Shown: positions 27,943 through 43,628 of the stretch, one piece after another
Position numbering within the stretch: the stretch's first letter is position 1
Layout of the letters: each line of letters opens with the position of its first letter
From: an uncultured Clostridia bacterium
GTDB taxonomy: Bacteria; Bacillota; Clostridia; TANB77; CAG-508
Length of the DNA stretch: 64,000 nucleotides
Assembly: GCA_944388705.1 (NCBI GenBank)
Contig: CALXJU010000002.1
Coordinates: 3,041 to 67,040 of the forward strand
Reading direction: 5' to 3'
The notes under the pieces: generated by a model
What the model saw: only the letters and a program-made list of their open reading frames with translations
What the model was told of the DNA's origin: nothing
The model's database searches: none
Position numbers and translations under genes: made by a program

Positions 27943-27967
27943 CACTTTATTGAGTGCTATTTTTTTC
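27933..27967. terminator. Bidirectional terminator at a 4-nt convergent gene junction
   Basis: TAGCACT (27940-27946) - TTATTG - AGTGCTA (27953-27959), flanked by an A-run (27934-27939) and a T-run (27960-27966). The hairpin overlaps the last codons of the 27947-28549 gene. Confidence 0.65.
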
Positions 27968-28549
27968 GTATTTTTCTCTTTCTTTACTTCTTTTTATTTT
28001 TTTAGTATTTGTTTTTTGTTCAAATATATATATTATTATTAATATTGCTAATATTATTCCTAATGTTGTTTTACTTTTTAGTGCTAATACTATTTTTCCT
28101 ATTTTGGGAATTACATTTATACATTTTCCTTCTATTTCGTCAAATGTTATTTTATCTTCATCTTCTGTATTATTTGCATCCCCTTGTGTTGTGTATAATA
28201 ATTCTCCATTTTCAGATTTTGATATTTTTATTATTCTATGTGTTATTGTTTCTCCTTTATGTTTAAATGCTATTATATCTCCTCTTTTTATTTCATTTTG
28301 CTCTACTTCTTTTATTATGACAATATCATTTACTGATATTGTTGGTTCCATACTTCCTGATATTATGCAAAATGTTTTTATTCCAAATACACTTGGAGTC
28401 TCATTTGGTTTTTGTATTGTTTGAATTATTATTATTAAATCCCACAATATTATTGGTAATAACAATATATATATTAATTTTACTAATGTATTTTTTATTG
28501 TTTTTATCACTTGTTTTTTTCTCATTTTTTCGTTGTAGTATTCTTCCAT
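27947..28549 (-). CDS. sipW: Signal peptidase I, ER/archaeal (SipW) type, paralog 1
   Basis: TM helix, then IISGSMEPT (Ser box), ITHRII (His box) and TQGDANNTEDE, with a C-terminal TM helix. This is the S26B layout. Confidence 0.85.
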   Translation of the reverse strand: MEEYYNEKMRKKQVIKTIKNTLVKLIYILLLPIILWDLIIIIQTIQKPNETPSVFGIKTFCIISGSMEPTISVNDIVIIKEVEQNEIKRGDIIAFKHKGETITHRIIKISKSENGELLYTTQGDANNTEDEDKITFDEIEGKCINVIPKIGKIVLALKSKTTLGIILAILIIIYIFEQKTNTKKIKRSKEREKYEKNSTQ

Positions 28550-28552
28550 TGT

Positions 28553-30169
28553 TTACCTTTCAGCATTATTTTTTAAATCTTCTAATATTTTGTTTGCTTT
28601 TAATATGAATTTTGCATCTTCTAAGTCTAATCCACTATTTTCTAAATTATATGCATTTACTAGTGTTTCTACTGTATTTACTAATGCCCCAATTGAAGAT
28701 TCTGATAAATCTTCTTTTGTTATATTTATATTAAATAAATTATATTTGTCTTTTATCATAAGTGCCATATCTTTTTCTTCTTTTATTGTTACATTATTTA
28801 TTATTGTTATATATGGGCTTGTGATAAATTTTCTTATTGCTACGACTGTTTCATTTATTTCTTTTTCAGGTATGTCAGGAAATTCTTTTATTATTGCTTC
28901 TACTAAAAATGTGTAAAATGAACCAGCTAAAAATAGTGCATCATATATTGTCGAATTATCTGTTAACATTGTTGATATTTTATCAAAAACTTTATCATCA
29001 TCTATTTTTCTATATAATTCTTTTAAATTTATTATTTGATTATTTATATCAATTGTTAATGTTTTTAATTTTTCTTCACTATTTTTCTTAAAGAATATCA
29101 TGTTTTTTAGTTTGTCTGTTTTTTCATATTTTTTATTTGTTTTTACTAATTTGCTTTCTAATTTTTGTATTTCTTTTTTTTGCCTTTCATATCCATTTTT
29201 GTATTTTTCTTTTTCTTTATATATTTTTAATAATTCATCAAATATAAATTTATATTTTAAATAATTTTGATATTCTTCTAATGTTTTTGATAATTTAACA
29301 ATATTTTCTTTTATATCATTAAGTTCTGTTTTGGCATAATTGTCTATTGGTTGTGCTAATATTTTTTCAAATTGTTTTTCTATTGCTATTGGCTCATAAT
29401 CTTTTGGGTCTAATTCTTTATTTAAAAATCTATCTAACATTAATTTTTTGTCAGGTCCTTTTAAATCATCTAATTTTGCTTTTAATGTTCTATATTTTTC
29501 TAAATATTCTCTATCAGATGTTTCTAAGTCTTTTAATATTAATTTGTTTTCATTTGCAAAATGTCTATCTATTTCTTTTTCATGTTTTAAATATAAATAT
29601 CTGATATTTAATTCTATGTGTACTATTATATCTGAACATTCCCAATATAATTTTTCAAATATGTCTTTCATTGTTTGTGAATTTACATCACCTTTTTTAT
29701 ATTCTCTGAAAAATACTTTCATATATCTTCTTGCAAATGGACTATAATTAAAATCTTCTGGTTTTAATTCAACTCCAACTTCTGCAAACCTTCTAATACA
29801 TGCTAATATATTATTATTTACTTGTTCTAGATTGTTTTTATAAAATCTTCTTAATATAAATAATAATTCATCTAATTTCATTTTTTCATATGATGTATTT
29901 CCTATTCCTAATAAATCTAAATTATTGAATTTTTCTAAGTCTTCTTCAACTTCTTTGATTTCTGGATTTTCTTTTATTTCATTTATTTTGTTAGTTCTAT
30001 CTTGTATTTCATTTATAATATTGCCTAGATATTTTTCATAATTTATTTTTATTTCTTGTACTTTTTTTATATATGATTCAAGATTTTTCTTTGTATTTTT
30101 TGGCAATACTGCTAATATTTCTTTGTCAGTATCTATTTTTTCATTTAATATCTCTATTGGACTACTCAT
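28553..30169 (-). CDS. Hypothetical cytoplasmic coiled-coil protein
   Basis: 538 aa, K/E-rich and helical, with no TM segment or signal. Its stop lies 3 nt upstream of the sipW paralog 1 start. Confidence 0.6.
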   Translation of the reverse strand: MSSPIEILNEKIDTDKEILAVLPKNTKKNLESYIKKVQEIKINYEKYLGNIINEIQDRTNKINEIKENPEIKEVEEDLEKFNNLDLLGIGNTSYEKMKLDELLFILRRFYKNNLEQVNNNILACIRRFAEVGVELKPEDFNYSPFARRYMKVFFREYKKGDVNSQTMKDIFEKLYWECSDIIVHIELNIRYLYLKHEKEIDRHFANENKLILKDLETSDREYLEKYRTLKAKLDDLKGPDKKLMLDRFLNKELDPKDYEPIAIEKQFEKILAQPIDNYAKTELNDIKENIVKLSKTLEEYQNYLKYKFIFDELLKIYKEKEKYKNGYERQKKEIQKLESKLVKTNKKYEKTDKLKNMIFFKKNSEEKLKTLTIDINNQIINLKELYRKIDDDKVFDKISTMLTDNSTIYDALFLAGSFYTFLVEAIIKEFPDIPEKEINETVVAIRKFITSPYITIINNVTIKEEKDMALMIKDKYNLFNINITKEDLSESSIGALVNTVETLVNAYNLENSGLDLEDAKFILKANKILEDLKNNAER

Positions 30170-30297
30170 TATTTTTTCTCCACCTCATTTGTTTTTATTT
30201 CATTTTCTAGAAATTCTATGTATTCTTCTGTTCTATTATAAATTTCTAGTAATTCTTCATTTGTTATTTTGCTTAAGTTTATTTCACTTATTTCCAT
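30169..30297 (-). CDS. Possible 42-aa small ORF translationally coupled to the 538-aa gene
   Basis: My translation is MEISEINLSKITNEELLEIYNRTEEYIEFLENEIKTNEVEKK. Its TAA overlaps the downstream ATG (TAATG). The SD is weak, and it falls below the ORF-track size cutoff. Confidence 0.3.
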   Translation of the reverse strand: MEISEINLSKITNEELLEIYNRTEEYIEFLENEIKTNEVEKK

Positions 30298-30376
30298 TGT
30301 TTCTTCTCATTCCTTTCGTACAGAATTATATATAAAAAAACTTTTTATGTCTATATCTTTTTTAAATTTTTTTAGT

Positions 30377-31414
30377 TTATATTGTTTCTTTTTTTTCATT
30401 TTCTTCTGATGTATTTTGTTCAGGTGTTTCTTCTTCTTTTGGTGGTTGAGTTTCTTCTGGTTGAACTTCTTCTGGTTCACTTTCTTCTGGTTTTTCTTCT
30501 GGCTTGTCCTCAGGATTTTCTTCTTCTCCTTGTTCTGGTGGTGTTATTGGTTCTTCTACTACTGGTTGGTCTGGTTGTTCTATAGGTTCCTGTATTACTG
30601 GTGGTTGTTCTGGTTGGGCTTGTGGTGTTGGTGTATAATTTTTCCATGGGTTTCCACTTGCTGGGTCTGTTGGGTCCCAACCTCTTACACTTTCTTCTCC
30701 TGATATTTTTTGTGCTGATGGTTTTCCTAATGGTCCTGGATTTGAGTCATAATAAAATTCTACTTGTGTACCTGCTGGACAATTATCATATATCCATTTT
30801 GCATCTCTTACTGTTAATCGTATACATCCTGCTGATGCTTTTGTTCCTAATTTATCATATTCCCAATATTCTAATGTTGATTTATCTTTACTTGTATATG
30901 GCACTGAATGGAATAATATACTTCCTTTTATTCTTACATAATATTGTGCCCATACTCCTCCTTCCATTTGTCCCCATGTCCATCTATCCCATGTCTTTCC
31001 TGGTATTGTATATACTCCTTCTGTTGGTGTTGCTTTTCCTATTGAACATATCATTGCTTTATATGGTACTGTGTAATTTCCATTTTTGTCTTTTGTATAT
31101 ATTGTTACTACATTTGCTTGATTATTTACTTTTATATAATATTTTATTTCTTGTTTTTTCTGCTCTACTTCTGGTTCTTCTTTTTCTTCAATTTGTTCTA
31201 CATTTGGTGGTGGTTCTTCTGAATTTATTTGTTGCCTATTTGTTGTTATTATTTCTGTTTTTTCTTGTTTTCCTATTTCTACTGTTTCTTGCATTACTTC
31301 TTTTGTTTCTTTTGACATGTTTATTATTGCTATTACTGCTAATATTAGTAATAATACTACTAATATTGATATTAATATTACTAGCCCCTTTTTTCTTTTT
31401 ATTTTTTCTAACAT
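30377..31414 (-). CDS. L,D-transpeptidase (YkuD domain), membrane-anchored, with a long acidic P/E-rich C-terminal tail
   Basis: YkuD catalytic motifs SILFHSVPY and ASAGCIRL. The tail reads PQAQPEQPPVIQEPIEQPDQPVVEEPITPPEQGEEENPEDKPEEKPEE... Confidence 0.85.
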   Translation of the reverse strand: MLEKIKRKKGLVILISILVVLLLILAVIAIINMSKETKEVMQETVEIGKQEKTEIITTNRQQINSEEPPPNVEQIEEKEEPEVEQKKQEIKYYIKVNNQANVVTIYTKDKNGNYTVPYKAMICSIGKATPTEGVYTIPGKTWDRWTWGQMEGGVWAQYYVRIKGSILFHSVPYTSKDKSTLEYWEYDKLGTKASAGCIRLTVRDAKWIYDNCPAGTQVEFYYDSNPGPLGKPSAQKISGEESVRGWDPTDPASGNPWKNYTPTPQAQPEQPPVIQEPIEQPDQPVVEEPITPPEQGEEENPEDKPEEKPEESEPEEVQPEETQPPKEEETPEQNTSEENEKKETI

Positions 31415-31489
31415 CTATATTTTCCTTTCCTATATTTTCCACCTTATTATATAGTTTTTTACACTTTTTTTCAAGATGTTTTTATATTT

Positions 31490-31531
31490 TTATACACAAA
31501 AGCACAAAATGTTTTTTCACATTTTGTGCTT
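31490..31531 (-). terminator. Rho-independent terminator after the tandem major-subunit genes
   Basis: Perfect 13-bp stem AAAGCACAAAATG (31498-31510) / CATTTTGTGCTTT (31519-31531). The minus strand then reads TGTGTATAAAAAT; the run of four U is supplied by the 3' arm of the stem itself (GCTTTT, counting the next base). Confidence 0.75.
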
Positions 31532-31537
31532 TCAAAA

Positions 31538-32548
31538 TTATGGTTTTTTTACTGATGGTTTTGTAAATCCTAATACTATGTCTATTGATTTACCTGTTGA
31601 TGCTGTATCAACATTGTCTGGGTCTTGTCCTTCTAACCATATATATACTCTTGCTTTCATTATTGAATTTTGTGCTAACATCATATTATCAGTACCTAAG
31701 TTTGTCATATTTGTAGCAGTTCCTACTGTTGCATCTGTTTTTAATGTTTTTTGCTCTCCTAAATTTTCATTAGCATTACCTGCTGTTAAATCTGGTACAT
31801 TAACTCCAGAAATTGTTCCTCCACCATTCTTTTTTACTCCTAATGTTGTAAATTCTGCTGTTGCATTTGGAACTCTTGTTGGGTCATTTCTTACAATTTC
31901 TGCTATATGTTTATTATAATTTGGTTCCCATATACATACTGTTGGTGTTCCAGGTGCTATTTGTCTAATATCTGTACCTGCTGCTGTCATAACTTCTTTA
32001 TTACTATATAATACAACTGCTGATCTTACACAGTTTTCTAGTCCTGTATTTTGTTTTCCGTCTGCTGCTATTGCAACTTTTGTACCTGTATTTAATTGTA
32101 ATATATCTCCATCTACTTTTGAAGATGAATTTTTAAAATATAAATCAAATGCTATATATTTTGTTGTATCTGCATCATTTTCTTGATCAACATTTGTTAA
32201 TTGTGTTCCATCTGCACTTATATCTCCATAAAACATATTCATCTCTCCAGAAGCTGTTTCTCCTACTGTTGATACTGGTACTAATGCCTCTGGCCAAGCA
32301 TAATTATTATCTATTGCTGCTGCTAAGTTCACTTTATTAATTGTTATTTTTGAACTCCATGCTTCTCCATCAAGTGATATCTGTAAACCTTCTGCAGCTA
32401 CAACTTTTGCATTTATTCCTTCAAGTGCAACTTCTTTGTTTGCTGAGAACCATGCATATGTTGATGATAATAGTAGCATTCCTATTAATATTGTTGTCAT
32501 AAATAAAGATTTTAGTCTTCTTTTACTTCTTCTACTTCTCCTACTCAT
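31538..32548 (-). CDS. SipW-cognate-signal secreted protein, TasA-like superfamily, 'major' paralog A1
   Basis: MSRRSRRSKRRLKSLF + TM helix + SSTYAWFSANKE, and the C-terminal motif ARVYIWLEGQDPDNVD. By eye it is roughly three-quarters identical to the next gene. Confidence 0.7.
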   Translation of the reverse strand: MSRRSRRSKRRLKSLFMTTILIGMLLLSSTYAWFSANKEVALEGINAKVVAAEGLQISLDGEAWSSKITINKVNLAAAIDNNYAWPEALVPVSTVGETASGEMNMFYGDISADGTQLTNVDQENDADTTKYIAFDLYFKNSSSKVDGDILQLNTGTKVAIAADGKQNTGLENCVRSAVVLYSNKEVMTAAGTDIRQIAPGTPTVCIWEPNYNKHIAEIVRNDPTRVPNATAEFTTLGVKKNGGGTISGVNVPDLTAGNANENLGEQKTLKTDATVGTATNMTNLGTDNMMLAQNSIMKARVYIWLEGQDPDNVDTASTGKSIDIVLGFTKPSVKKP

Positions 32549-32591
32549 AATCTTTCTCCTTTGATTTAATTATATAAATAATTAATTAATT

Positions 32592-33599
32592 TTAGCCACC
32601 TGGTTGTGTTACTGCTGGTTTTGTAAATCCTAATACTATATCTATTGATTTACCTGTTGATGCTGTATCTATACAATCTGGGTCTTGTCCTTCAAGCCAT
32701 ATATATATTCTTGCTTTCATTACAGAATTTTGTTTTAATTTTAGTTGAGTAGAACCATCTACTGCTGTCATATTTGTAGCAGTTCCTACTGTTGCATCTG
32801 TTTTAATTGTAGTTTGTTCTCCTAAAAATTCATTTGATGGGTCTGTTGCTACATTTATTCCTGTTACTGTTCCATCTCCTACAGATTTTAGTCCTAAAGT
32901 TGTAAAATCAGTATCTGCACTTGGTATTCTATCATTGTCATTTTTTACAACTTCTGCTATATGTTTATTATAATTTGGTTCCCATATACTTACTAATGGT
33001 GTTCCTGCTGCAATTGCTCTAATTGTTGCTCCATCATCTGTCATTAATGCTGTATTTTCATATAATACTATACTAGATCTTACACAGTTTTCTAGTCCTG
33101 TTCCTTGTTTTCCATCAACTGCATTTATTGCTACTTTTGTACCAACATTTAATTGTAAATCATCTGTTGGTTTTGAAGATGAGTTTTTAAAATATAAATC
33201 AAATACTATATATTTTGTTGTATCTGCATCAGATTCTATAGCTGCATTTGTTAATTCTGAACCATCTGCACTTACATCTCCATAAAACATATTCATGTTT
33301 CCTGATGCTGTTTCTCCTACTGTTGATACTGGTACTAAAGCATCTGGCCATTTATAGTTATTTGATACTGCTGCAGCTAAATTTTCTTTATTTATTGTTA
33401 TTTTTGAACTCCATGCTTCTCCATCAAGTGATATTTGCAAACCTTCTGCAGCTACAACTTTTGCATTTATTCCTTCAAGTGCAACTTCCTTGTTTGCTGA
33501 GAACCATGCATATGTTGATGTTACCATTAACATTGCTGTTAATATCAACATAATAAATAATGATTTTAATCTTCTTCTGTTACTTCTACTTCTTCTCAT
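32592..33599 (-). CDS. SipW-cognate-signal secreted protein, TasA-like superfamily, 'major' paralog A2
   Basis: MRRSRSNRRRLKSLF + TM helix + TSTYAWFSANKE, and the C-terminal motif ARIYIWLEGQDPDCID. It is a tandem duplicate of 31538-32548. Confidence 0.7.
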   Translation of the reverse strand: MRRSRSNRRRLKSLFIMLILTAMLMVTSTYAWFSANKEVALEGINAKVVAAEGLQISLDGEAWSSKITINKENLAAAVSNNYKWPDALVPVSTVGETASGNMNMFYGDVSADGSELTNAAIESDADTTKYIVFDLYFKNSSSKPTDDLQLNVGTKVAINAVDGKQGTGLENCVRSSIVLYENTALMTDDGATIRAIAAGTPLVSIWEPNYNKHIAEVVKNDNDRIPSADTDFTTLGLKSVGDGTVTGINVATDPSNEFLGEQTTIKTDATVGTATNMTAVDGSTQLKLKQNSVMKARIYIWLEGQDPDCIDTASTGKSIDIVLGFTKPAVTQPGG

Positions 33600-33613
33600 T
33601 TTTTTCTCTCCTT

Positions 33614-34327
33614 TTATATATTATTCTCTTGTTCAACATGCTCTTCCAAAATACTCATATGCATTTTAATTTCTCCACCTATTAAATCATCTAAGCATTC
33701 TGGGTCATTACCATCTATCCAAATTACGACAGTAATTTTATCTATCTCGCCAGAGTTAAAGTTTTCTCTAGGTTCGACTATGATTTCTTTTGCATCATTA
33801 AATGGGATTGTATTTCCTTCTGGTTCTTTTGTTGTACTATTTACTTTTGCATATACTTTTTTCTCTCCATTTAAAAATATTGTCACTCTCAATGCTTCAT
33901 CTACTCTTTTTATTACATCATCTAGTACAACTTGATACCAATAATTCATAGTATTGTCACTTCTGTTTTCTACATAGAATGTATATGCTATATAGTTTGT
34001 GCCATTGTGACTTCCTTCTGCCTGACTGTCAATATCTGCTGGTAGCCAACTTTCTGCTATATTTGTAAAAAAATCAACTGTATCTGCTTCTAATTTTTGC
34101 TGGGCCTTTTTTTCTTCTAGTTTATCATAAATTATTAGACCACTCATTGGGTCTCCTGCTTTATCTAATATTATCGTAAATCTTCCTGAATCATATACTA
34201 TTTTTAATATAAAATATATGATTAGTAAGAATATTACCATTATAACAAGCAGTCGCCTTATCCATCGTATTCTAGAATTTCTTTCGCTTATCTTGTTGGC
34301 ATTCTTTCGTATTCTCCTTTTTGACAT
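33614..34327 (-). CDS. Membrane-anchored paralog of the A family lacking the SipW cleavage motif
   Basis: MSKRRIRKNANK...RWIRR + TM helix, but no [ST]xA[WK][FY] motif. It shares NYIAYTFYVENRS (compare KYIAFDLYFKNSS) and ITVVIWIDGNDPECLD with the A1/A2 genes. Confidence 0.6.
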   Translation of the reverse strand: MSKRRIRKNANKISERNSRIRWIRRLLVIMVIFLLIIYFILKIVYDSGRFTIILDKAGDPMSGLIIYDKLEEKKAQQKLEADTVDFFTNIAESWLPADIDSQAEGSHNGTNYIAYTFYVENRSDNTMNYWYQVVLDDVIKRVDEALRVTIFLNGEKKVYAKVNSTTKEPEGNTIPFNDAKEIIVEPRENFNSGEIDKITVVIWIDGNDPECLDDLIGGEIKMHMSILEEHVEQENNI

Positions 34328-34424
34328 TTACATTCTACCTACCCCATTTGTTATTTCATCAAAAATGAACAAAATATGATATTTTTGTTATTTAAATTTT
34401 AGCATATTCGACTGTCAAATACAA

Positions 34425-34489
34425 TTACAAATATGTTACATTTATATTACATTTTTTTTTACATTTTTCTAATATTTTTGTAACATTTC
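34425..34489. promoter_or_regulatory. Phased TTACA(T/A) repeat array in a divergent promoter region
   Basis: TTACAA at 34425, then TTACAT at 34436, 34447 and 34459 (spacing 11, 11 and 12 bp), plus GTAACATT at 34480. The core matches the 26051-26094 array. Confidence 0.45.
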
Positions 34490-34551
34490 GTTTTTTTATT
34501 GTATTTTACTACATTTTATGCTATGCTTTTTTTAGTGTAATAGGAGGATTT

Positions 34552-35136: not shown

Positions 35137-35154
35137 GGACGGTTCTGTTTTGAA

Positions 35155-35336: not shown

Positions 35337-35338
35337 TT

Positions 35339-36658: not shown

Positions 36659-37762
36659 TTAAATGCTTACTTCACTGATTTTTTGAAAATATTTATCCAT
36701 ATATTTTCTAAATATTTTTTCAATATCTTTTTTAGATGCCATTCTGACTTCTTTTACTTTATCAAATTTGTCTCCTAGCTTTTCTTGCAATTGCTTTTTA
36801 GTCATTTCTGGATTCATTTCAATTATTTTGTCTAGCATACTTGATAGTGTTTTTTCTTTCGCTTTTTCAATATCTTCATTACTTGCTTTATTATTAATAG
36901 AGTTTACTGTTAAATATTCCAATAAGAAAGTCTGATCTATTAATTCTTTTAATTGGCTTTTATCTTGATAATCCTTTTTTTCTTGTTCAGGTTCATTTTT
37001 ATCAGCCATATGTTCCATAATGTAATCCCATAATTTCATTGCATATTGGAAATTTACATTTTTCAATATTACATTTGTCTTTTTTATCGGATTTGTAACA
37101 AAAGCCACTCCTTCTTTATCTAAGGCAAGATATACTTCTGAAAGCTTTAATGCTTTTATATCTGTTTCTATTTTTTTAATTCTTTCTTCATAATTTGGGT
37201 CTTTATTTAATGAAGTGTCAAGATCTGTATTTAATGTTATATTTACACTTACTTTTTCTTCTCCAACCATTGTTGTACTAGTATAATCTATTTTTTTATT
37301 ATCTCTAAGTCTTGGATCTTTATTTGTATTATCTAGTTTTAATCTTATAAATTGTTCCATATATGCTATTAGTGTGTAAATAAATCTATTTTCATATGTA
37401 TTAAATGTTTCTTCTTTAAATACATTTAATAATTTTGATGGTATTACATCTCCTGTATCTTCATCTAAATCTTGTATAAAGTTTGTATGTTTTGCTAAAT
37501 GTTTTATTGTTTCTACTCCTACTTTTTTTGCTTGTTCTACTTTTATAATTTCTTCTTCTGTTGTTATAAATCTTTTAGGATTTCTTACTATTTTATCCAA
37601 ATATGGAAGGGTAAATTCAAATAAATCTACCCATTTATCATCAAAACTATCTCTAAAATAATCTGTCTGTACTCTCATGCTTGAATCTAGATTACTACCA
37701 AAATCACTTACTTTACTTTCATCTACTTGATTGACTAAATCATTTACATCTAATCCTGCCAT
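36659..37762 (-). CDS. Hypothetical soluble helical protein, candidate partner of the AAA+ NTPase (weak McrC/DUF2357-N-like resemblance, no nuclease motif seen)
   Basis: 367 aa. The segment FNTYENRFIYTLIAYMEQFI is recalled from memory as similar to DUF2357/McrC N-domains. The C-terminal half is K/E-rich coiled coil, and I found no PD-(D/E)xK motif. Confidence 0.35.
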   Translation of the reverse strand: MAGLDVNDLVNQVDESKVSDFGSNLDSSMRVQTDYFRDSFDDKWVDLFEFTLPYLDKIVRNPKRFITTEEEIIKVEQAKKVGVETIKHLAKHTNFIQDLDEDTGDVIPSKLLNVFKEETFNTYENRFIYTLIAYMEQFIRLKLDNTNKDPRLRDNKKIDYTSTTMVGEEKVSVNITLNTDLDTSLNKDPNYEERIKKIETDIKALKLSEVYLALDKEGVAFVTNPIKKTNVILKNVNFQYAMKLWDYIMEHMADKNEPEQEKKDYQDKSQLKELIDQTFLLEYLTVNSINNKASNEDIEKAKEKTLSSMLDKIIEMNPEMTKKQLQEKLGDKFDKVKEVRMASKKDIEKIFRKYMDKYFQKISEVSI

Positions 37763-37774: not shown

Positions 37775-39304
37775 TTATGCAGATTTCTTTAATCTTAATA
37801 AATATTCTATACATTCTGCCATTGCACCTTTTCCAAATGTATCATCTAAAAATTTTATGTATGGATCTATTTCGTCTTTTATTAATGCCATATTTAATTG
37901 TTCAAATTTTCTTAATATTTTTTTAGCAATAAAGTAATCTACTCCTTCTACTTCTGTTCCTCCACATGCTACATATACTGGTACAAATTTTTTCATATGT
38001 GCTACAATACGGTTACCAAATGCTATACGGAAATGTGCTATTACATAATCATCCATTTGCTCTATTTTGTCTAATGTGTCTTGTGATATTGCATATGTTT
38101 CCATTGCTTCTGAAAATATTCTATCTAAGTATGAATAATTTACATCCATTGCATCTCTTTGTTCTGGTACAAATACTTTTCCTTTATCATTTATATCTAT
38201 AGGCATAGCTCTATCATATACCTTATCTGTTACAGCAAATGTAGAGTCGTCGTTATTGATTGTACCTATGTACCACATATTTGCTGGTACTTGTATTTTT
38301 CCAAACATTAATTTTTTAGGGTCTGTTGGCCAACTATTTGGTACAACTTCTATTACCCATTCTTTTTTGTTAGGCATTTCTAGTATTGATAACATTTCTG
38401 CAAAATAATATTCAACACGTGATAAGTTCATCTCGTCTAATATTATTGTATATATATCATCTGTATAATTTGCTATATACATTTCTTTTAATATATCTGT
38501 TTCATTAAATTTCTTTGTAAATTCGTTGAAATATCCAAAAAGGTCTGTTCTATCTCTCCATGATGGTTGTACTGATGCTACACATGAATCATGTTTTAAG
38601 AATTTTCCCCATGCATATGCAAGAGATGTTTTACCTGTACCAGAAATACCTTGTAATATTACTAATTTTGTTGATGCTATTCCTGCAATAAATATTCTCA
38701 TCATTTTTTCTGTATAATATAATTTTAATTTTGATGCAGCATAATTTCTAAAGTTGAAGCAAAATTCTGGTAAATCAAATGAGTTATTATAATTTTGTAT
38801 TTTATAATTGGCATATTCCATATCTATTAATGATAGTTTTGCAAAACGTTGTGTTGTTGATGGATCAACTTCTTCTCCTTCTTCACCATTTTGAGGAGTT
38901 TCTTCATCTAATTCTGATGGTTTTAATCCTAATTGTGATACTTTCATTGCTAATATTTCATCTTTTTCTTTTGATAATTTGACCACTTTTTTATTTAATG
39001 TTGCAACTTCATCTAATAATGCCTCTTGGTCTGTTACTGGCTTTCTTAGCTTAGCATATTTTTTTACTATAAATAATACTAAAAATACTATTAATCCTAA
39101 AAAAATTACTACAAATAATATTGATAATACTGCCATTACCCATTCAGGTGCAGAAAAGTCTGCATAATAGTTTCTAAACACTTCCATATATTGCTTTATA
39201 TTAAACATTTGCTTAATACCATCTATTAAGCCTTTAAATATCATTAATATTCCTGAAACTGTTTGATTTATAAATTCATATAAAAATCTTACAAATGTAT
39301 CCAT
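37775..39304 (-). CDS. Membrane-anchored McrB-like AAA+ (AAA_5) NTPase
   Basis: TM helix WVMAVLSILFVVIFLGLIVFLVLFIV, then a coiled coil. Walker A LQGISGTGKTS, Walker B plus McrB-type segment IILDEMNLSRVEYYFAEMLSILE, then YIGTINNDDSTFAVTDKVYDRA. I chose the start at MDTFVRF (AGGGG SD); the longest ORF extends to 39322. Confidence 0.75.
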   Translation of the reverse strand: MDTFVRFLYEFINQTVSGILMIFKGLIDGIKQMFNIKQYMEVFRNYYADFSAPEWVMAVLSILFVVIFLGLIVFLVLFIVKKYAKLRKPVTDQEALLDEVATLNKKVVKLSKEKDEILAMKVSQLGLKPSELDEETPQNGEEGEEVDPSTTQRFAKLSLIDMEYANYKIQNYNNSFDLPEFCFNFRNYAASKLKLYYTEKMMRIFIAGIASTKLVILQGISGTGKTSLAYAWGKFLKHDSCVASVQPSWRDRTDLFGYFNEFTKKFNETDILKEMYIANYTDDIYTIILDEMNLSRVEYYFAEMLSILEMPNKKEWVIEVVPNSWPTDPKKLMFGKIQVPANMWYIGTINNDDSTFAVTDKVYDRAMPIDINDKGKVFVPEQRDAMDVNYSYLDRIFSEAMETYAISQDTLDKIEQMDDYVIAHFRIAFGNRIVAHMKKFVPVYVACGGTEVEGVDYFIAKKILRKFEQLNMALIKDEIDPYIKFLDDTFGKGAMAECIEYLLRLKKSA

Positions 39305-40325: not shown

Positions 40326-40340
40326 ATTTTCACCTCTTTT

Positions 40341-41195
40341 TTAGTATGTTAGTGTGATTACTGGAGGTTCAGTACTTCCAGCTTCGTGTGTATAGTTTTG
40401 CGTTGGGTCTATTTTATAAAATTTTACTGTTGTTGTTTGAAGTGTATCTACAAATGATGTTACTGAATTTACATATGAATACCCATTTATTTCAGTTGTT
40501 GTAGTTGCTGTTGAATTTAAGTAATAACTACTTGTCATATCAAGTAATATTATATTAGGGTCAAATGATAATTTTACATCTTTTCCTATATCTAATGAGT
40601 TTGTTATATTTACTTCTAAGTATGGACTGTTTTCTGAGTCCATTATTTCATATGATATATCTTCTGTTCCTACTCCTACTATTAATCTTCCACTTAATGT
40701 TTTTTCATATGGTGATGTTGATGTTACCTCAACTTCTACCCATGTGGTTTCTCCATTTGCTAATGCTTGTCCTCCTGCTGGATTTATTTTTATTGTGAAA
40801 TAGTCTTCATTTATTCCTCCATTTTGACTCCCTATTATTGTCCCACTATTTTTACTTAATTCACATTCAATATTATCTGAATGTGTTAAATTTACAGTAT
40901 AGTCTATATCTGTTTCTGCAAATAATAAGTCATTTTTTTTACTATTTAAGTTTATTGTTATTGTATATGTTTCTGCTCCTGACCAGTTATTTGCTATTTC
41001 AAATTCTGCGTGGTCTGTTGTTAGTTTATCACTATTAAAATAAAATCCTTTTGAACCTAAATAATAATCTTGTACTGCATTATATACATATTTTGATAAA
41101 CTTGTCATTGTTGGCACAAGTATAACTATTATTATCAGAATAATTAATAATGGTATTATTTTATTATTTCTTTTTTTTCTCCTTCTCCTTGTCAT
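40341..41195 (-). CDS. Secreted protein with SipW-like signal (MTSLSKYVYN), beta-rich
   Basis: MTRRRRKKRNNK + TM helix + PTMTSLSKYVYNAV. 284 aa, T/S/N-rich and probably all-beta. Confidence 0.5.
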   Translation of the reverse strand: MTRRRRKKRNNKIIPLLIILIIIVILVPTMTSLSKYVYNAVQDYYLGSKGFYFNSDKLTTDHAEFEIANNWSGAETYTITINLNSKKNDLLFAETDIDYTVNLTHSDNIECELSKNSGTIIGSQNGGINEDYFTIKINPAGGQALANGETTWVEVEVTSTSPYEKTLSGRLIVGVGTEDISYEIMDSENSPYLEVNITNSLDIGKDVKLSFDPNIILLDMTSSYYLNSTATTTTEINGYSYVNSVTSFVDTLQTTTVKFYKIDPTQNYTHEAGSTEPPVITLTY

Positions 41196-41224
41196 TTGAA
41201 CTTCCTTTTCTTACTAATTATTTA

Positions 41225-41785
41225 TTATACAATTTGTTCAGAATTTATTGTAATTTCAACAGCTTCTATTATTCCCTGATACTCTACTGAATTTAGTTCT
41301 TTAGGGAATGTTACTTCTAACCTATAATTATTTATCTCATCAGTTTCAAATCCAAATGTGTTTTCACTTGATGTTATTGTTTTAAAATATGTACCATATT
41401 CATCTTGTGTAGTTTGGTAATCTCTAAATAAGTCATCTGCTCCATCATTCATATATAAACTATATGTTAACGGAAGATTTGTTGTCATTCGTATTGATAT
41501 GGTATATTTTAATGCTGTTTCTGTTCTATCTGTTCCATCATTATTTGCTATAGAAAAATTGTATATGTATTTTTCATCACTTGGAATCATTTCTTCTAAT
41601 GCTATTGTTTCTGATATTTTTTGTTCTTTTAACAAATAAAATGCTACATCTACATTTGCTTCTGATTTTCCTGATGAACTATATCTTGCTAATGTTCCCT
41701 TTAGTATGAATATTAGGATAATTATTAATACAAATATTATTATTATTTTTTTATAAAATTTGTTCTTTCTTCTCCTTCTACTCAT
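41225..41785 (-). CDS. SipW-cognate-signal secreted protein, TasA-like superfamily, B family
   Basis: MSRRRRKNKFYKK + TM helix + KGTLARYSSSGK. The C-terminus ITINSEQIV matches LNFEQII of 34552-35136. It overlaps the upstream sipW paralog by 8 nt. Confidence 0.6.
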   Translation of the reverse strand: MSRRRRKNKFYKKIIIIFVLIIILIFILKGTLARYSSSGKSEANVDVAFYLLKEQKISETIALEEMIPSDEKYIYNFSIANNDGTDRTETALKYTISIRMTTNLPLTYSLYMNDGADDLFRDYQTTQDEYGTYFKTITSSENTFGFETDEINNYRLEVTFPKELNSVEYQGIIEAVEITINSEQIV

Positions 41786-42305
41786 TTTTATTCCTTTCGT
41801 TTTTTATTTTTTCTGTTTTATCTTTTGATATTGCTAATCCTATTAATACAAGTGTGATAAATATTGATATTAAAACATTTGGCTCTGTAAAAACTTTTGC
41901 CCAAATTCCAACTCTGGGATATACTGAAACAACTTTTCCTATTACTGCATCTTTTGTAATTTCTTCGTCTTCAGTATTATTTGCATCTCCTTTTGTTACT
42001 AATTTATCTCCATTTATCTTCATTATTCTATGTGTTATTAAGTCATTGTCTTTTTTGAATGTTATTATGTCATTTTCTTTTACATCTTTTGTTATCTTTA
42101 CTAATATTACGTCATATACATTTAATGTTTTTGCCATACTTCCTGTTTTTATTTCAAATATTGTATATCCAAAAAAGTTCGTATAGTCTTTATTCATTAT
42201 TTGTAATTGTATATAGTTATATCCAACTATTAGCACTATCAAAAAAACTATTACTATTATTATATTTAATATAATATGTGCTATTTTTTCAAATATTTTG
42301 TACAT
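41778..42305 (-). CDS. sipW: Signal peptidase I, SipW type, paralog 3
   Basis: EIKTGSMAKT (Ser box), ITHRIM (His box) and TKGDANNTEDEE, plus a C-terminal TM helix. Confidence 0.8.
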   Translation of the reverse strand: MYKIFEKIAHIILNIIIVIVFLIVLIVGYNYIQLQIMNKDYTNFFGYTIFEIKTGSMAKTLNVYDVILVKITKDVKENDIITFKKDNDLITHRIMKINGDKLVTKGDANNTEDEEITKDAVIGKVVSVYPRVGIWAKVFTEPNVLISIFITLVLIGLAISKDKTEKIKNERNKNE

Positions 42306-42321
42306 TTTTAATCCTTTCTTT

Positions 42322-42423
42322 GCATAATATTTATATATATAACTATTTCATAGCAAAACCATATCTGGGGCTTTCGTCGGGGAGCTTTGCTTTATTACAT
42401 AGTTATATATATAAATATTATGC
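42322..42423. repeat. Palindromic intergenic element, copy 3 (same orientation as copy 2)
   Basis: Arms GCATAATATTTATATATATAACTATTTCATAG / ACATAGTTATATATATAAATATTATGC. The core GGGGCTTTCGTCGGGGAGCTTTGC lies at 42367-42390. Confidence 0.85.
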
Positions 42424-42481
42424 AAAAATTATGTAAAAATTAATTAAAACTAATTAAAACTAATTTCAATTATCTATTAAA

Positions 42482-43111
42482 CTAAGGATTATATTCTTCT
42501 ATATTTTCTCCCAAATATTGACTTGCTTTTACTTCTACTGGTATAGATATTTGTATGTCTTTTTGCAATCCTAATTCTGAATCTGCTTCGTCATTTACTC
42601 CTGTTCCATCATCATCCCAACCTAAATAAACTCTGATTGTATTTGTTTTTTTATTTTGTATGTCATCTAGGCTAACTACTCCTGTATAAGTACTTTCTCC
42701 TGTTTTTGTTATTCCTTCTGTTGACTCTACTCCATCTACTACTTTTACTAATCTTGCAAAATATATAGAATCTGTTAAATCTAGTTGTTCAAAATTTATT
42801 GATACATCATATCTTACTGCAACACTTGCTTCTGTTGCATCTATTTCTACATCAAAATATCCTAGCAAACCTGGCGCAATTTTTCCCTCTAACACATAAT
42901 CATTTGAATTATATGTTAATTCATTTATAGTAAATTCTTGTGAATCTGTTCCTGTTGCTATATTTGTTCCATTTACTTTTACTATCCATGCTCCTATTTG
43001 TTCTTCTATTGTTCCTTTTGCTTCTGTATAGTATTTAGCATATGCACTATTTATTTGATATAGTGTAATTATTAACATTATTAATGCTGATAATATCCAT
43101 ATTTTTCTCAT
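42482..43111 (-). CDS. SipW-cognate-signal secreted protein, TasA-like superfamily, B family
   Basis: Signal ending YQINSAYAKYYTE; APGLLGYFDVEIDATE; IRVYLGWDDDGTG. Confidence 0.65.
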   Translation of the reverse strand: MRKIWILSALIMLIITLYQINSAYAKYYTEAKGTIEEQIGAWIVKVNGTNIATGTDSQEFTINELTYNSNDYVLEGKIAPGLLGYFDVEIDATEASVAVRYDVSINFEQLDLTDSIYFARLVKVVDGVESTEGITKTGESTYTGVVSLDDIQNKKTNTIRVYLGWDDDGTGVNDEADSELGLQKDIQISIPVEVKASQYLGENIEEYNP

Positions 43112-43127
43112 ATTTCTTTCCTTTGTT

Positions 43128-43628
43128 TTAATCTTTATTTCCTAATTCTACTATTACCTCAAATATTTCATGTAAAAATGCTATTACTGATGGAAATATT
43201 ATTAAAAATAAAAATCCCCATCTTGATTCTAATATACTTAGGATTTTTCCAACTTTACTATATACTTTTACATTGTCTTCGCTACCTATTACATCATCTT
43301 CTATTACTTGATGATTTCCATCTAAAATGTAAGTAGTACTTATTCCTTCGTATTCATTTATTTGATTTACTTCTCCTAGTTTTATGTCCCTATCATTATA
43401 AAAAAATATTTTATCCCCTACTTCTACTTTATCCAAGTTTTCTTTTGTAGCTATTACTAAGTCTCCTTCTACATATTCAGGTTCTAGTGAATCATCGGCT
43501 ATTAGTATTAATGTGTTATTTCCGAATTCTGTTACATTATAATCATTATAATTTAACAAACATAATGTTACCACTATCGCTATTATCACATATACTATAA
43601 CTATCAGATTTACTATTGCTCTCTTCAT
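43128..43628 (-). CDS. SipW-like protein with a degenerate catalytic site (possible pseudo-peptidase), paralog 4
   Basis: It has the same TM - beta core - TM layout as the other three. The Ser box survives as DDSLEPE, but the His box [IV]TH[RQ] is replaced by KLGEVNQI and GDAN by LDGNHQ. Confidence 0.5.
   Translation of the reverse strand: MKRAIVNLIVIVYVIIAIVVTLCLLNYNDYNVTEFGNNTLILIADDSLEPEYVEGDLVIATKENLDKVEVGDKIFFYNDRDIKLGEVNQINEYEGISTTYILDGNHQVIEDDVIGSEDNVKVYSKVGKILSILESRWGFLFLIIFPSVIAFLHEIFEVIVELGNKD

Follow-up and report, generated by a model that had tools for sequence, protein, structure and literature searches.

What does a bacterium build with four signal peptidases whose genes are interleaved with those of secreted proteins? 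The locus that raises this question lies in a 64,000-nucleotide stretch of DNA (the window) from an uncultured gut Clostridia bacterium. Here, a conserved gene cluster of ~26-28 kb encodes four signal peptidases, ~10 pilin-like proteins that are secreted, and a GTPase that is anchored in the membrane and descends from a DNA-restriction system; it most likely builds a surface fibre. The original prediction placed the system at 27947-43628. The genes in that interval were confirmed, while the boundary was drawn too tightly, as the system reaches at least to position 17846, in the giant protein B. Coordinates below are window positions with the strand as (+) or (-), and co-occurrence counts refer to 42 well-covered related loci.

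Three active signal peptidases and a conserved pseudo-peptidase

All four predicted peptidase ORFs were confirmed at their positions, and three pass TIGR02228, the model for archaeal/ER-type signal peptidase I (cutoff 51.85 bits). The active ER/archaeal-type peptidase sip1 (27947-28549 (-); 99.2 bits; SGSMEP, ITHRI, GDANNTEDE) and the active ER-type enzymes sip2 (36003-36647 (-); 77.2 bits; TESMVP, VTHQV, GIANEDED) and sip3 (41778-42305 (-); 67.7 bits; TGSMAK, ITHRI, GDANNTEDE) keep both the Ser and the His box. In sip1, which has transmembrane (TM) segments at its N- and C-terminus, these boxes are conserved among orthologs; sip2 carries a long cytoplasmic C-tail, acidic then basic. The fourth, sip4 (43128-43628 (-)), scores 34.0 bits (E 2.3e-8), under the cutoff. 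It keeps the Ser (DDSLEP), has Gly at the His position (IKLGEV) and has lost the GDANN box. Because Gly replaces His and the His box is absent in 34/37 sip4 orthologs, its earlier description as a degenerate copy was right; the degeneracy is itself conserved, and we class sip4 as a conserved pseudo-peptidase.

The peptidases keep stable partners: sip1 pairs with H and F (adjoining F in 19 loci), sip2 with L, and sip3 and sip4 with R, Q and T. The neighbours of sip2 are N in 30 loci and L in 31, sip3 adjoins R in 14, and sip4 lies next to T in 11 and to Q in 11. Co-occurrence of sip2 and L is perfect, with both present in 26 loci, both missing from 16 and none discordant.

A shared signal defines two classes of secreted proteins

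About ten secreted or anchored proteins combine a TM helix with a strongly basic N-tail on the cytoplasmic side. Seven interleaved proteins add a conserved T-x-A/[WK][FY] site and together form a network of remote homologs. The signal motifs quoted in the original prediction are all in the sequence, and among orthologs they fall into two conserved classes: a WF class (T-[YF]-A-W-F) in H, I and L, and a KY class ([ST]-x-[AS]-[KR]-Y) in K, T, Q and R. A motif scan of the 54 window ORFs of >=100 aa with an N-terminal hydrophobic segment flagged six, and all six lie inside the locus; T209 (SAYAKY) fell under the scan's hydropathy threshold. The cleavage motif, written as T-aromatic-A/x-[FY], aligns with GTWA/AF, the experimentally defined site of TasA.

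The looser motifs ascribed to the 560- and 2522-residue proteins are present; their placement in the same signal class is tentative. A560 (16108-17790 (-)), a DUF6583 protein (PF20224, E 1.5e-11) with an N-terminal TM, carries the most TasA-like signal of the region (GGTFAYLY), which reaches only 10.7 bits against the TIGR04088 cutoff of 19. The gene lies outside the flank that the related loci cover, and A560 is an uncertain member of the system.

Major-type, minor and anchor-type subunits

H336 (31538-32548 (-); STYA/WF) is a putative major subunit with a large beta-sandwich (AF2 model pLDDT 88.8) and >1000 homologs, none of them annotated. The first ~30 mature residues and the C-terminal Trp-acidic loop are its most conserved parts, with conservation highest at residues 31-60 and 301-320 and a variable patch at 251-290. 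Related loci carry one to four tandem copies of H; here its paralog I335 (32592-33599 (-); TYAWF), 73% identical to H, is a second major-type subunit. Directly after the H stop codon stands an intrinsic-terminator-like hairpin (31498-31533 (-); 15 bp, AT-rich, U-tail) with a fold energy of -25.8 kcal/mol (z = -6.5). J237 (33614-34327 (-)), TM-anchored, H-related and noted in the original prediction for its C-terminal motif only, is without the cleavage motif, which is missing in 57/58 orthologs. Found in 38/42 loci, mostly directly upstream of H, J is a candidate membrane anchor or base subunit. The C-terminal strand-Trp-acidic motif proposed to be shared is real and is picked up by profile-profile comparison (hhalign H-J, 92% over the last 45 residues).

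The remaining subunits are smaller or minor. K194 (34552-35136 (+); TTYA/KY), a small KY-class protein with a pilin-type Ig fold, has its gene on the other strand in almost every locus. Its paralog T209 (42482-43111 (-); SAYA/KY) is another small KY-class subunit (31% identity; hhalign 100% over full length), and the K/T family numbers 3311 representatives at 50% clustering. L215 (35339-35986 (-); NTYA/WF), a WF-class minor subunit, is linked by hhalign to H (96.9%), to T (89% over 164 columns) and to K (95.8% over 29 residues). The KY-class secreted subunits Q284 (40341-41195 (-); TSLS/KY) and R186 (41225-41785 (-); GTLA/RY) align with each other (97% over 135 columns), and R also with K (95.3%) and L (95.2%).

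Do these proteins belong to the TasA family? The label "TasA-like paralogs" fits insofar as the K fold and the cleavage motif resemble TasA. It fails as a statement of membership: in HMM searches no locus subunit matched Peptidase_M73 (PF12389), TIGR04087 or TIGR04088, and profile-profile comparison with the TasA/CalY profile gave probabilities of 3.9% for K/T and 0.17% for H. With no significant PDB fold match for H either, TasA-family membership of the subunits is not supported.

Structure models had been suggested earlier as a check. For the AF2 model of H, no significant PDB fold match was found. K (pLDDT 83.2) resembles the TasA fibre among donor-strand pilins; its best PDB matches are donor-strand-complemented pilins, with FimG (4.4e-4), the PapG pilin domain (4.6e-4), archaeal AbpA (2.6e-3) and the TasA fibre (5.4e-3) among the Foldseek hits. 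Because these E-values are modest (4e-4 to 5e-3, with TM-scores of 0.3-0.57) and the Ig fold is common, the K fold does not by itself demonstrate donor-strand assembly.

A GTPase module embedded in the locus

The original prediction left out the best-conserved genes in the cluster, foremost O and N, together with P and F, although all four lie inside its own coordinates. O (509 aa from M7; 37775-39304 (-), ORF to 39322) is a membrane-anchored McrB-like AAA+ GTPase (GISGTGKT, ILDEMN, GTINNDDST) with E. coli McrB as its best PDB matches. Over 338 aa it shares 37% identity (E 5e-63) with a CoCoNuT-like GTPase whose gene adjoins a DUF2357 gene. O bears the NxD+[DE] signature and matches the PADLOC defence-candidate model PDC-M26A (118 bits). 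O has a single TM at residues ~60-90 and is without a DNA-binding N-domain. It is the most conserved gene of the system, with a mean column identity of 67%, far above the subunits, and 51-57% identity across classes. N367 (36659-37762 (-)) is an McrC homolog (DUF2357; PF09823, E 9e-12) and shares 20% identity (E 4e-10) with a Deinococcus DUF2357 protein. DUF2357 was matched in 23/27 N orthologs and a nuclease family in 0/27, and no nuclease domain was detected in N. N accompanies O in 30 of the 31 O-containing loci.

P337 (39312-40325 (-)) is a cytoplasmic protein without a TM. In four loci (L025, L043, L050, L077) it forms the C-terminal part of a natural fusion with a signal peptidase, whose order is TM, SPase, TM, acidic linker, P; L029 also carries such a fusion, cut by the contig end. 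F538 (28553-30169 (-)) is conserved, cytoplasmic and without a TM; it has heptad-rich segments, and searches gave no Pfam or PDB match and no known domain. It is found in 31/42 loci, nearly always directly after the H genes. A conserved acidic ORF of 42 aa (30169-30297 (-)) lies immediately upstream of F and overlaps its start, and a 42-44-aa gene is called at the same place in L001, L002, L004, L005 and L085.

If the locus were an expanded but ordinary SipW/TasA-type biofilm-matrix fibre that self-assembles after cleavage, then O, N and P would be an unrelated type IV restriction-like defence cassette. ER-type peptidases do adjoin secreted beta-sandwich proteins with a TasA-like cleavage motif, K matches the TasA fibre in fold, O matches a defence-candidate model, and, to our knowledge, no NTPase takes part in the polymerisation of TasA, AbpA or cannulae fibres. 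We nevertheless find this reading quite improbable. O and N keep their place with respect to sip2 and L in 30/42 loci from Clostridia, Bacilli, Erysipelotrichaceae and Oscillospiraceae, and are retained even in minimal Oscillospiraceae loci; O is the slowest-evolving gene of the locus, unlike a defence gene. The membrane anchor of O, its missing DNA-binding domain, the lack of a detectable nuclease in N, the P-peptidase fusions and the absence of any subunit detectable as PF12389 all argue in the same direction.

Alternatively, the whole cluster might be an anti-phage or conflict system of the CoCoNuT/McrBC lineage, in which the GTPase senses infection and the secreted or membrane proteins are effectors, for example in envelope remodelling or receptor masking. 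O and N do fall in the NxD branch of McrBC, in which the remaining members are predicted to act in defence. However, searches of the cluster turned up neither a nuclease nor any other toxic effector domain, and its ~26-28 kb are syntenic with housekeeping-like conservation (51-57% identity of O across classes) and sit between mutS and sporulation genes, without the context of a variable island. We regard a defence function as very unlikely.

Accessory genes and the case for polymerisation

The giant B2522 (17846-25414 (-)), a secreted protein, combines a basic N-tail and a TM with Gly-rich YGGxN-type repeats; no Pfam or PDB sequence match was found for it. B-like proteins come after D in Clostridia-type loci, and in four Bacilli-type loci those of 2438-2553 aa separate the H-type genes from F; B is a candidate distal adhesin or fibre component. 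C181 (25424-25969 (-)), a small TM-anchored protein whose N-tail is very basic, lacks a cleavage motif and is limited to close relatives. D592 (26164-27942 (+)) is cytoplasmic, without a TM, with a Pro/Gln-rich linker, and is divergently transcribed; in a same-strain scaffold it is called from M13 (580 aa). It is accessory and confined to the Clostridia lineage, found in 13/42 loci and beside sip1 every time, and there is a bidirectional terminator at 27933-27966. G345 (30377-31414 (-)), a membrane-anchored YkuD L,D-transpeptidase (PF03734, E 1e-15), is a lineage-specific insertion seen only in the closest relatives L001, L002 and L007. Between the convergent K and L, nested inverted repeats form a ~200-nt hairpin (35146-35345; -96.3 kcal/mol, z = -13), conserved in L001, with simpler hairpins there in other relatives. 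It is likely an elaborate bidirectional terminator.

Must the secreted proteins polymerise at all? They could be surface-coat, adhesin or cell-cell junction proteins, individually processed and anchored via J, C or the cell wall, with the GTPase module as a cytoplasmic export regulator or quality control. H has no pilin-like fold match, J and C remain anchored, the closest relatives carry an inserted YkuD L,D-transpeptidase, and B is a giant adhesin-like protein. Bell et al. (PMC11090510) also reported FtsB homology for the GTPase N-domain, and an FtsB-like anchor might direct the module to the septum; we looked for FtsB homology of O and for coiled coils on O and N, and did not confirm them. 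Against this rather unlikely reading, the extremely conserved first 30 mature residues and C-terminal loop of H, together with its variable surface patch, are typical of a polymerising major pilin. Tandem H paralogs and the terminator after H suit a high-copy structural subunit, K is like the incomplete-Ig donor-strand pilins, and many minor subunits accompany one major subunit, as in known pili.

Conservation as a unit and the sporulation neighbourhood

Synteny and co-occurrence show the gene set conserved as a unit in the related loci. They support the view of the locus as one coherent apparatus, in which secreted subunits of major, minor and anchor type are served by ER-type signal peptidases of their own. 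Peptidases, subunits and O, N, P and F co-occur in ~30/42 loci from Clostridia, Bacilli, Erysipelotrichaceae and Oscillospiraceae MAGs; individually, O is present in 31, N in 30, an active-type SPase in 33, F in 31 and J in 38. Eight loci have F or a peptidase-type gene and no O within 10 kb; in these the O block may sit outside the flank. The hosts are uncultured MAGs throughout.

The earlier suggestion of a spore appendage was based on neighbouring spoIIA and spoIID genes only, and we find it unsupported. Expression of an appendage or exosporium fibre would be expected during sporulation, either in the mother cell or at the surface of the forespore, and the host is a spore-former with SigF (288 bits), SpoIIAB, SpoIID and a SpoIIQ-like protein encoded 0.5-5 kb left of A560. 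This adjacency is positional only, however. MutS and miaB form the right flank, and comparison of related loci found no sporulation gene co-conserved within the locus. The system also occurs in other genomic contexts, among MAGs that carry the labels Mollicutes, Tenericutes, Mycoplasma, Bacilli and Erysipelotrichaceae. Upstream of sip4 and V139, the strongest promoter-like matches are of sigma-A type, though the frequency of such matches is not above chance in this AT-rich DNA. We see only a slim chance that the fibre belongs to the spore.

A proposed model for GTPase-coupled fibre assembly

Collectively, our data are best read as a GTPase-coupled, peptidase-dependent surface-fibre assembly system on a Gram-positive cell, to which we assign a probability of roughly 0.6; cleavage, polymerisation and the role of the GTPase are what we infer. 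In such a model, Sec would insert the subunits as signal-anchored precursors, and the cognate peptidase would cut after T-x-A, freeing the conserved N-terminal strand for polymerisation by donor-strand complementation. H and I would form the shaft, L, K, T, Q and R would serve as initiators, adaptors or tips, the giant protein B would be the distal adhesin and uncleaved J the membrane anchor. On the cytoplasmic side, an O hexamer, activated by N and tied to the peptidases via P and possibly F, would hydrolyse GTP to order, gate or energise cleavage-coupled assembly.

A GTPase requirement would be without precedent, because TasA, chaperone-usher and archaeal bundling pili are not known to depend on an NTPase. 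The original prediction knew of no characterised equivalent, which is right as far as experiments go, but the class already has a name: the locus matches CoCoPALM, defined by the same gene association, named in two sentences of one paper and described no further (Bell et al., eLife 2024; PMC11090510). In overall logic, the system resembles type IV pili, with a class-specific signal, a dedicated peptidase and a cytoplasmic NTPase, although the parts are unrelated.

Conservation and genomic setting of the locus

The pilin/peptidase gene cluster sits in an AT-rich (~26% GC) chromosomal window from an endospore-forming Firmicute, with polA, ruvB, recA and the genes for a SpoIIQ-like protein, SpoIID, SigF and SpoIIAB to its left and mutS and miaB to its right. 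By exact-match look-ups, the sequence is also carried on human- and animal-gut metagenome scaffolds. The reading frames and motifs behind the original prediction were all found where it had placed them. The genes run in the order sip4-T-sip3-R-Q-P-O-N-sip2-L-(K reversed)-J-H-(42-aa ORF)-F-sip1-(D reversed)-B. Here, sip1 to sip4 encode signal peptidases; H, I, L, K, T, Q and R are secreted subunits, H and I being the putative major ones; J is a membrane-anchored relative of H; O and N are an McrB-like GTPase and its McrC/DUF2357 partner; P, F and D are cytoplasmic; and B is a giant protein. The same order is kept around H homologs of 78% and ~45% identity, showing that the gene set is conserved as a unit.

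A scan of one genome per species yielded 128 relatives, from which we kept 79 loci, all in uncultured MAGs. They span Clostridia, Bacilli/'Mollicutes'/'Tenericutes', Erysipelotrichaceae, Oscillospiraceae and Ca. Scatovivens. This distribution bears on the earlier proposal that the structure is a spore appendage: support for it is positional, coming from the neighboring sporulation genes, and the presence of the system in lineages labelled Mollicutes and Tenericutes weakens it.

We classified the ORFs of the related loci with HMMs built from the window proteins and counted them over the 42 loci of at least 18 kb. J was present in 38 of these, an active-type peptidase in 33, O and F in 31 each, and N in 30, always together with O. 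Every well-covered locus with O also has a peptidase (31/31). N adjoins O in all syntenic loci, and directly adjoins sip2 in 30 loci. Most loci that lack O are Bacilli-type, with the order 'J H H H F R Q sip4 (sip3)'; in these the 10-kb flank probably stops just short of the P-O-N block. Conservation is highest in O, with a mean column identity of 67%; in Oscillospiraceae- and Bacilli-type loci it is 51-57% identical to the window protein, and H 25-33%. Giant B-like proteins are found within four Bacilli-type loci.

Peptidases and subunits keep fixed company. The genes for sip2 and L are both present in 26 loci and both absent from 16, with 0 discordant cases, and are adjacent, forming an O-N-sip2-L block. 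The sip3 and sip4 genes adjoin R, Q and T, which carry one of two signal classes (KY, described below), and sip1 adjoins F and H. This stable adjacency, together with the co-occurrence of sip2 and L, argues for cognate peptidase-substrate modules. A minimal Oscillospiraceae locus consists of J, an H-like gene, a peptidase, O, N, three H-like genes and a peptidase, and every cleavable subunit in it belongs to the other class (WF).

Three signal peptidases and a conserved pseudo-peptidase

Four genes had been read as signal peptidases of the ER/archaeal layout, one of them degenerate, and profile searches bear this out. Three pass the cutoff (51.85) of TIGR02228, which describes archaeal/ER-type signal peptidase I, with 99.2 (sip1), 77.2 (sip2) and 67.7 bits (sip3), and all three keep the catalytic Ser/His boxes (SGSMEP/ITHRI, TESMVP/VTHQV and TGSMAK/ITHRI, respectively). 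The degenerate copy, sip4 (43128-43628), scores 34.0 bits, under the cutoff, and retains the Ser with Gly in place of the His. As the same loss of His is found in 34/37 orthologs, sip4 is a conserved pseudo-peptidase, not a decaying gene. None of the four passes the SipW equivalog model NF046067 (cutoff 190 bits; sip1 88.1, sip2 75.1, sip3 52.6, sip4 23.4). They are enzymes of the same class as SipW without being its orthologs.

After its second transmembrane helix, sip2 (36003-36647) carries a cytoplasmic tail of ~45 residues, in which an acidic run is followed by a poly-basic run (EEKEDYDEEDEDDSEEKDD...KKAKKRKEKRAKRRRRYE). The C-terminal region of B. subtilis SipW has a separate regulatory role. 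It is conceivable that the sip2 tail serves as a docking point for the cytoplasmic module.

Seven secreted subunits carry two classes of signal

H, I, L, K, T, Q and R (n=7) share a basic N-tail, one transmembrane helix and a conserved site in which small-x-small precedes a pair of aromatic or basic residues. Comparison of orthologs separates the site into two forms, T-[YF]-A-W-F in H, I and L (WF class) and [ST]-x-[AS]-[KR]-Y in K, T, Q and R (KY class). When the ORFs of the window were scanned for the motif, all matches fell within the locus. The N-tail of H has 8 K/R in its first 13 residues, and that of L 12 in its first 17. J has the transmembrane anchor, and the cleavage motif is absent in 57/58 of its orthologs.

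Profile-profile comparison by hhalign connects the subunit families to one another: K with T at 100% and Q with R at 97%; H with L at 97% at the N-terminus, and T with L at 89% across 164 columns; and, through the C-terminal strand-Trp-acidic motif, H with J at 92% and K with L at 96%. Given this network, the suggestion that the subunits form one diverged superfamily is reasonable. A pilin-like module was sought in the giant protein B and in the DUF6583 protein A560, and found in neither. A560 (16108-17790, reverse strand), a possible member of the system, is encoded between B and the spoIIA operon, a position short of which the related loci end. Its signal, GIGGTFAYLY, is closer to the canonical TasA/CalY type than any other in the region.

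Conservation in H is maximal at residues 31-60, which hold the cleavage site and first mature residues, and at 301-320, the Trp-acidic loop. The N-terminal 30 residues of the mature protein are its most conserved segment, and residues 251-290 form a variable patch. Related loci carry 1-4 tandem copies of H, and in the window a 15-bp hairpin with a U-tail stands directly 3' of the H stop codon (z = -6.5). Taken together, the conservation profile, variable patch, tandem copies and terminator-like hairpin are consistent with a subunit that polymerises, is made in high copy and exposes a variable surface.

The K/T and H families are both large. In an exhaustive HMMER search, the K/T profile recovered ~3300 clusters at 50% identity; the 150 matches listed were all strong family members, with no bridge to a named family. 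The H family comprises >1000 clusters at 90% identity. As neither has an annotation, a Pfam family or a structure, a large part of the gut-microbiome surfaceome is currently invisible, and these proteins may have roles in adhesion, aggregation or host contact. In some genomes there are additional H-family genes whose 10-kb surroundings hold neither a peptidase nor O, N or F (L037, L045 and L074, and the shorter loci L058, L073 and L078). They look like orphan paralogs of the subunits at other chromosomal sites, and may be variants of the major subunit.

The subunits fall outside the TasA family, and K resembles pilins

The original prediction had described the subunits as TasA-like paralogs. 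Pfam and NCBIfam scans of all secreted proteins returned no match to Peptidase_M73, TapA or cognate_SipW. Among the secreted proteins scanned, none matched PF12389 at E ≤ 0.1, and TIGR04087 and TIGR04088 were likewise without a match, the best TIGR04088 score being 10.7 bits (A560) against a cutoff of 19. Searched against PDB sequences, TasA included, the H and K/T profiles found nothing at E ≤ 10. For hhalign, we verified the TasA sequence against the fibre structure 8AUR and used 38 PF12389 members as the TasA/CalY reference alignment. K/T reached a probability of 3.9%, with the C-terminal strand-loop-strand aligned, and H 0.17%, with the signal peptides alone aligned. The absent family matches and insignificant profile-profile scores (≤3.9%) rule out family membership. 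What does align occupies equivalent places in the topology, namely the cleavage site (STYAWFSAN, opposite GTWAAFND of TasA) and the C-terminal strand, acidic loop and strand. Both site classes, T-[YF]-A/W-F and [ST]-x-[AS]/[KR]-Y, align with T-W-A/A-F of TasA.

The predicted structures gave a split answer to the question of a TasA-like fold. The AF2 model of K (pLDDT 83.2) has donor-strand-complemented pilins as its best Foldseek matches, alongside MSCRAMM Ig domains: FimG (4.4e-4), the PapG pilin domain (4.6e-4) and AbpA (2.6e-3). It also matches the TasA fibre 8AUR (E 5.4e-3, probability 0.99, TMq 0.40), with FimG and PapG scoring better. The AF2 model of H (pLDDT 88.8) consists of an N-terminal helix and then a large beta-sandwich; in Foldseek it has no PDB match at E ≤ 0.001, and what it returns is generic jelly-roll/lectin noise, with TasA not among the best 50. 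Both single-chain models lose confidence in the linker that follows the cleavage site; this and the conserved mature N-terminus of H are indirect pointers to donor-strand exchange.

It is plausible that the small subunits work like a TasA-type or pilin-type subunit. As H is without a pilin match, a non-polymeric surface coat with a regulatory GTPase is a possible alternative to the fibre that the conservation of H fits.

A membrane-anchored McrB-like GTPase module

Between sip2 and Q lie the genes for N, O and P. N contains DUF2357, the N-terminal domain of McrC (PF09823, E 9e-12), as do 23/27 of its orthologs, and sequence-model searches of N and the 27 orthologs against Pfam nuclease families gave no match. 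The best PDB matches of O are to E. coli McrB, with which it aligns gaplessly across the Walker A (GISGTGKT) and Walker B (ILDEMN) motifs and the signature region. The signature of O is GTINNDDST, which lines up with GTANHDETT and GTLNMDETV in CoCoNuT-like GTPases and with GLMNTADRS in E. coli McrB. It can be described as NxD followed by D or E (NNDD, compared with NHDE and NMDE, and with NTAD in E. coli), although NNDD is also readable as NxxD. NNDD is found in 42/45 O orthologs.

A Deinococcus plasmid encodes, beside a DUF2357 gene, an 'AAA family ATPase' that shares 37% identity with O across 338 residues (E 5e-63). On this plasmid (Deinococcus sp. AJ005 p96k, 30371-34899; record L087), an 800-aa AAA ATPase is followed by a 705-aa DUF2357 protein. 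Among cultured organisms, no annotated pair is closer to O and N than this CoCoNuT-like one. O-like GTPase domains also occur in 280 plasmid records, mainly from Klebsiella. Against the PADLOC candidate PDC-M26A, O scores 118 bits.

O, whose true start is probably M7, has one strong transmembrane helix at ~residues 60-90, with no DNA-binding domain there, and a short charged helix after it. There was no Pfam match of O to DivIC/FtsB, and one ortholog matches FtsL_2 (E 0.011). A crude heptad scan flagged no coiled coil in O, its transmembrane region included, or in N. Searches of PDB sequences with the P, N and F profiles gave nothing meaningful. A weak match to a designed TIM barrel had hinted that P might be an EAL-like domain, which Pfam did not bear out.

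In Bacilli-type MAGs, P is fused to a peptidase in four full-length genes and one cut by a contig end (L077:388-2658; L050:1461-3857; L025:13059-15197; L043:18285-20378; L029:18-1922). The fusions are laid out as a transmembrane helix, catalytic domain, transmembrane helix, long acidic linker and P. As P follows a complete TM-peptidase-TM unit, it is cytoplasmic and physically tied to the peptidase.

These data also speak to whether O-N-P is a foreign element. A plain TasA-type locus carrying a passenger defence cassette is contradicted by the co-conservation of the module with the peptidases and subunits, the membrane anchor of O, the lack of a Pfam nuclease match in N and the peptidase-P fusions; on the first three of these we rejected an inserted defence island. 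A defence system in its own right lacks any effector, none having been found.

Hairpins and small elements

The convergent genes K and L are separated by a spacer (35146-35345) with nested inverted repeats, in which 41-nt arms (85% complementary) surround 23-nt perfect arms and a 52-nt core. The spacer folds as a single ~200-nt hairpin (-96 kcal/mol, z = -13). It is kept with the same core spacing in the 78%-identity relative (L001:7192-7403), and distant relatives have a simple hairpin only. The hairpin holds a motif, GGGGACGGTCC, with 5 matches in the window at up to 2 mismatches, against 0.09 expected; a palindromic copy lies at 53610-53624. We considered an invertible switch carrying K, which is on the opposite strand, and rejected it, as no inverted repeats flank the gene and the repeats found are a terminator-like hairpin. 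A bidirectional terminator lies between D and sip1. A scan for sigma-70 promoters was uninformative in this AT-rich window (152 sites, 146 expected), and no Rfam family was found in the locus.

A conserved 42-aa acidic ORF (30169-30297, reverse strand; MEISEINLSKITNEELLEIYNRTEEYIEFLENEIKTNEVEKK) overlaps the start of F, and a gene of 42-44 aa occupies the equivalent position in relatives down to ~45% identity. Between H and this ORF lies a gene for a membrane-anchored YkuD L,D-transpeptidase with a Pro/Glu-rich tail (30377-31414, reverse strand). It has its own promoter-like TTGAAA-17-TATAAT and is confined to the closest relatives, a lineage in which it could tie the structure to peptidoglycan. 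A 139-aa protein made mostly of EKRW(Q/E)EN-type repeats (43780-44199, reverse strand) has a perfect TTGACA-18-TATAAT upstream, at 44396-44367; as it is seen in only 2 related loci, it is probably outside the system.

A model for assembly

The idea of a fibre apparatus with dedicated peptidases survives in spirit, shorn of its family assignment and extended by the GTPase module that it had overlooked. In our model, subunits would enter the membrane via Sec as signal-anchored precursors, to be cut after T-x-A by class-specific ER-type peptidases. The conserved N-terminal strand freed in this way would drive donor-strand polymerisation of H and I on the anchor J. The remaining subunits, L, K, T, Q and R, would take initiator, adaptor or tip positions, and B would be a distal adhesin. 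On balance, we lean slightly towards a fibre made by strand exchange. On the cytoplasmic side, a membrane-tethered O hexamer, activated by N, would use GTP to order, gate or energise assembly, possibly by acting on the poly-basic N-tails. P, and perhaps also F and the 42-aa peptide, would join this hexamer to the peptidases, and sip4 might bind precursors but leave them uncut. We hold the part given to the GTPase in assembly as somewhat less likely than not.

Taken as a whole, the model would add a fifth route of pilus assembly, with a mechanism of its own, to the chaperone-usher, type IV, sortase and TasA-type self-assembly routes. In it, an McrBC-derived membrane GTPase ring, an McrC-like activator and a set of ER-type peptidases, pseudo-peptidase and P adaptor would couple signal-anchor cleavage to ordered donor-strand polymerisation of two pilin classes, and the system would be widespread among uncultured gut Firmicutes. 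We give this reading a probability of roughly 40%. If it is true, Gram-positive gut bacteria own a surface-fibre machine built on a new principle, with the GTPase motor of a restriction enzyme recruited to membrane protein assembly, and McrBC machinery has been put to use outside nucleic-acid conflict.

Comparison with known systems

Type IV pili and type II pseudopili share with the locus a logic only: a class-specific N-terminal signal, a dedicated membrane peptidase, a cytoplasmic hexameric NTPase, and major and minor subunits. The parts are all unrelated, with a Ser/His ER-type peptidase in place of the aspartic prepilin peptidase and an McrB-type AAA+ protein in place of PilB/GspE. Moreover, type IV prepilin peptidases cut before the transmembrane helix, whereas the cut in the locus is predicted to come after the helix and so remove it.

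K finds its best structural matches among chaperone-usher pilins (FimG, FimF, FimA and the PapG pilin domain; E 4.4e-4 to 1.8e-3, probability 1.0), whose pili likewise combine a single major subunit with several minor ones and a large adhesin. However, theirs is a Gram-negative periplasmic pathway, there is no sequence similarity, and the subunits of the locus carry SipW-type signals; Pfam and NCBIfam scans found no chaperone or usher domain among the locus proteins.

In the SipW-TasA/TapA (B. subtilis), SipW-TasA-CalY (B. cereus) and SipW-BsaA (C. perfringens) systems, as in the locus, an ER/archaeal-type peptidase is found beside secreted beta-sandwich substrates. The likeness extends to the T-aromatic-A/x-[FY] site, which aligns with GTWA/AF of TasA, to the match of the K fold to 8AUR, and to the C-terminal strand, acidic loop and strand at the equivalent position. 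The locus differs in having four peptidases, ~10 substrates, two signal classes and unusually basic N-tails. It also has an obligatory GTPase/McrC module and other cytoplasmic proteins, which the SipW systems are without.

Archaeal bundling pili (AbpA, 7UEG) are matched by K (E 2.6e-3, probability 0.96). Together with TasA-like archaeal matrix fibres (CanA cannulae and AbpX), they share processing by archaeal-type signal peptidase I and donor-strand polymerisation, which is putative in the locus; the acidic loops of H, J and K may recall the Ca-binding sites reported for cannulae. The archaeal fibres polymerise without a chaperone or NTPase, and the match of H to AbpA is insignificant (E 0.45).

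With McrBC, the locus shares the gapless alignment of O to E. coli McrB through the motifs and the DUF2357 domain that N has in common with the N-terminus of McrC. In contrast to McrBC, O has a membrane anchor replacing the DNA-binding domain and an NxD+D rather than NxxD signature, N has no PD-(D/E)xK Pfam match, and the pair is embedded in a conserved secretion/assembly locus.

Closest of all is CoCoPALM, a class that was named and described in two sentences, with the rest deferred to a future paper (Bell et al., 2024; eLife, PMC11090510). We met neither the name nor such a system elsewhere in the literature searched. The class is described as having an NxD McrB-like GTPase fused to an FtsB-like N-terminal domain (a transmembrane helix and coiled coil), an adjacent McrC homolog (DUF2357) that usually has a coiled coil and is often nuclease-less, and an association with the signal peptidase family (Bell et al., 2024). 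The locus likewise has, in Bacillota hosts, an NxD McrB-like GTPase with an N-terminal transmembrane helix replacing the DNA-binding domain, an adjacent McrC homolog with no nuclease match (DUF2357 in 23/27), and associated signal peptidases. By its GTPase clade, DUF2357 partner and peptidase association, it is very probably a CoCoPALM-type system. The published description is silent on substrates and their two signal classes, on a pseudo-peptidase or fusions of peptidase to P, and on F, J and the giant protein. The locus is a fully resolved new member of a class known by name only and experimentally uncharted, and it supplies CoCoPALM with a concrete list of parts, comprising two signal classes and their cognate peptidases, a conserved pseudo-peptidase, a putative uncleaved anchor and a peptidase-adaptor fusion.
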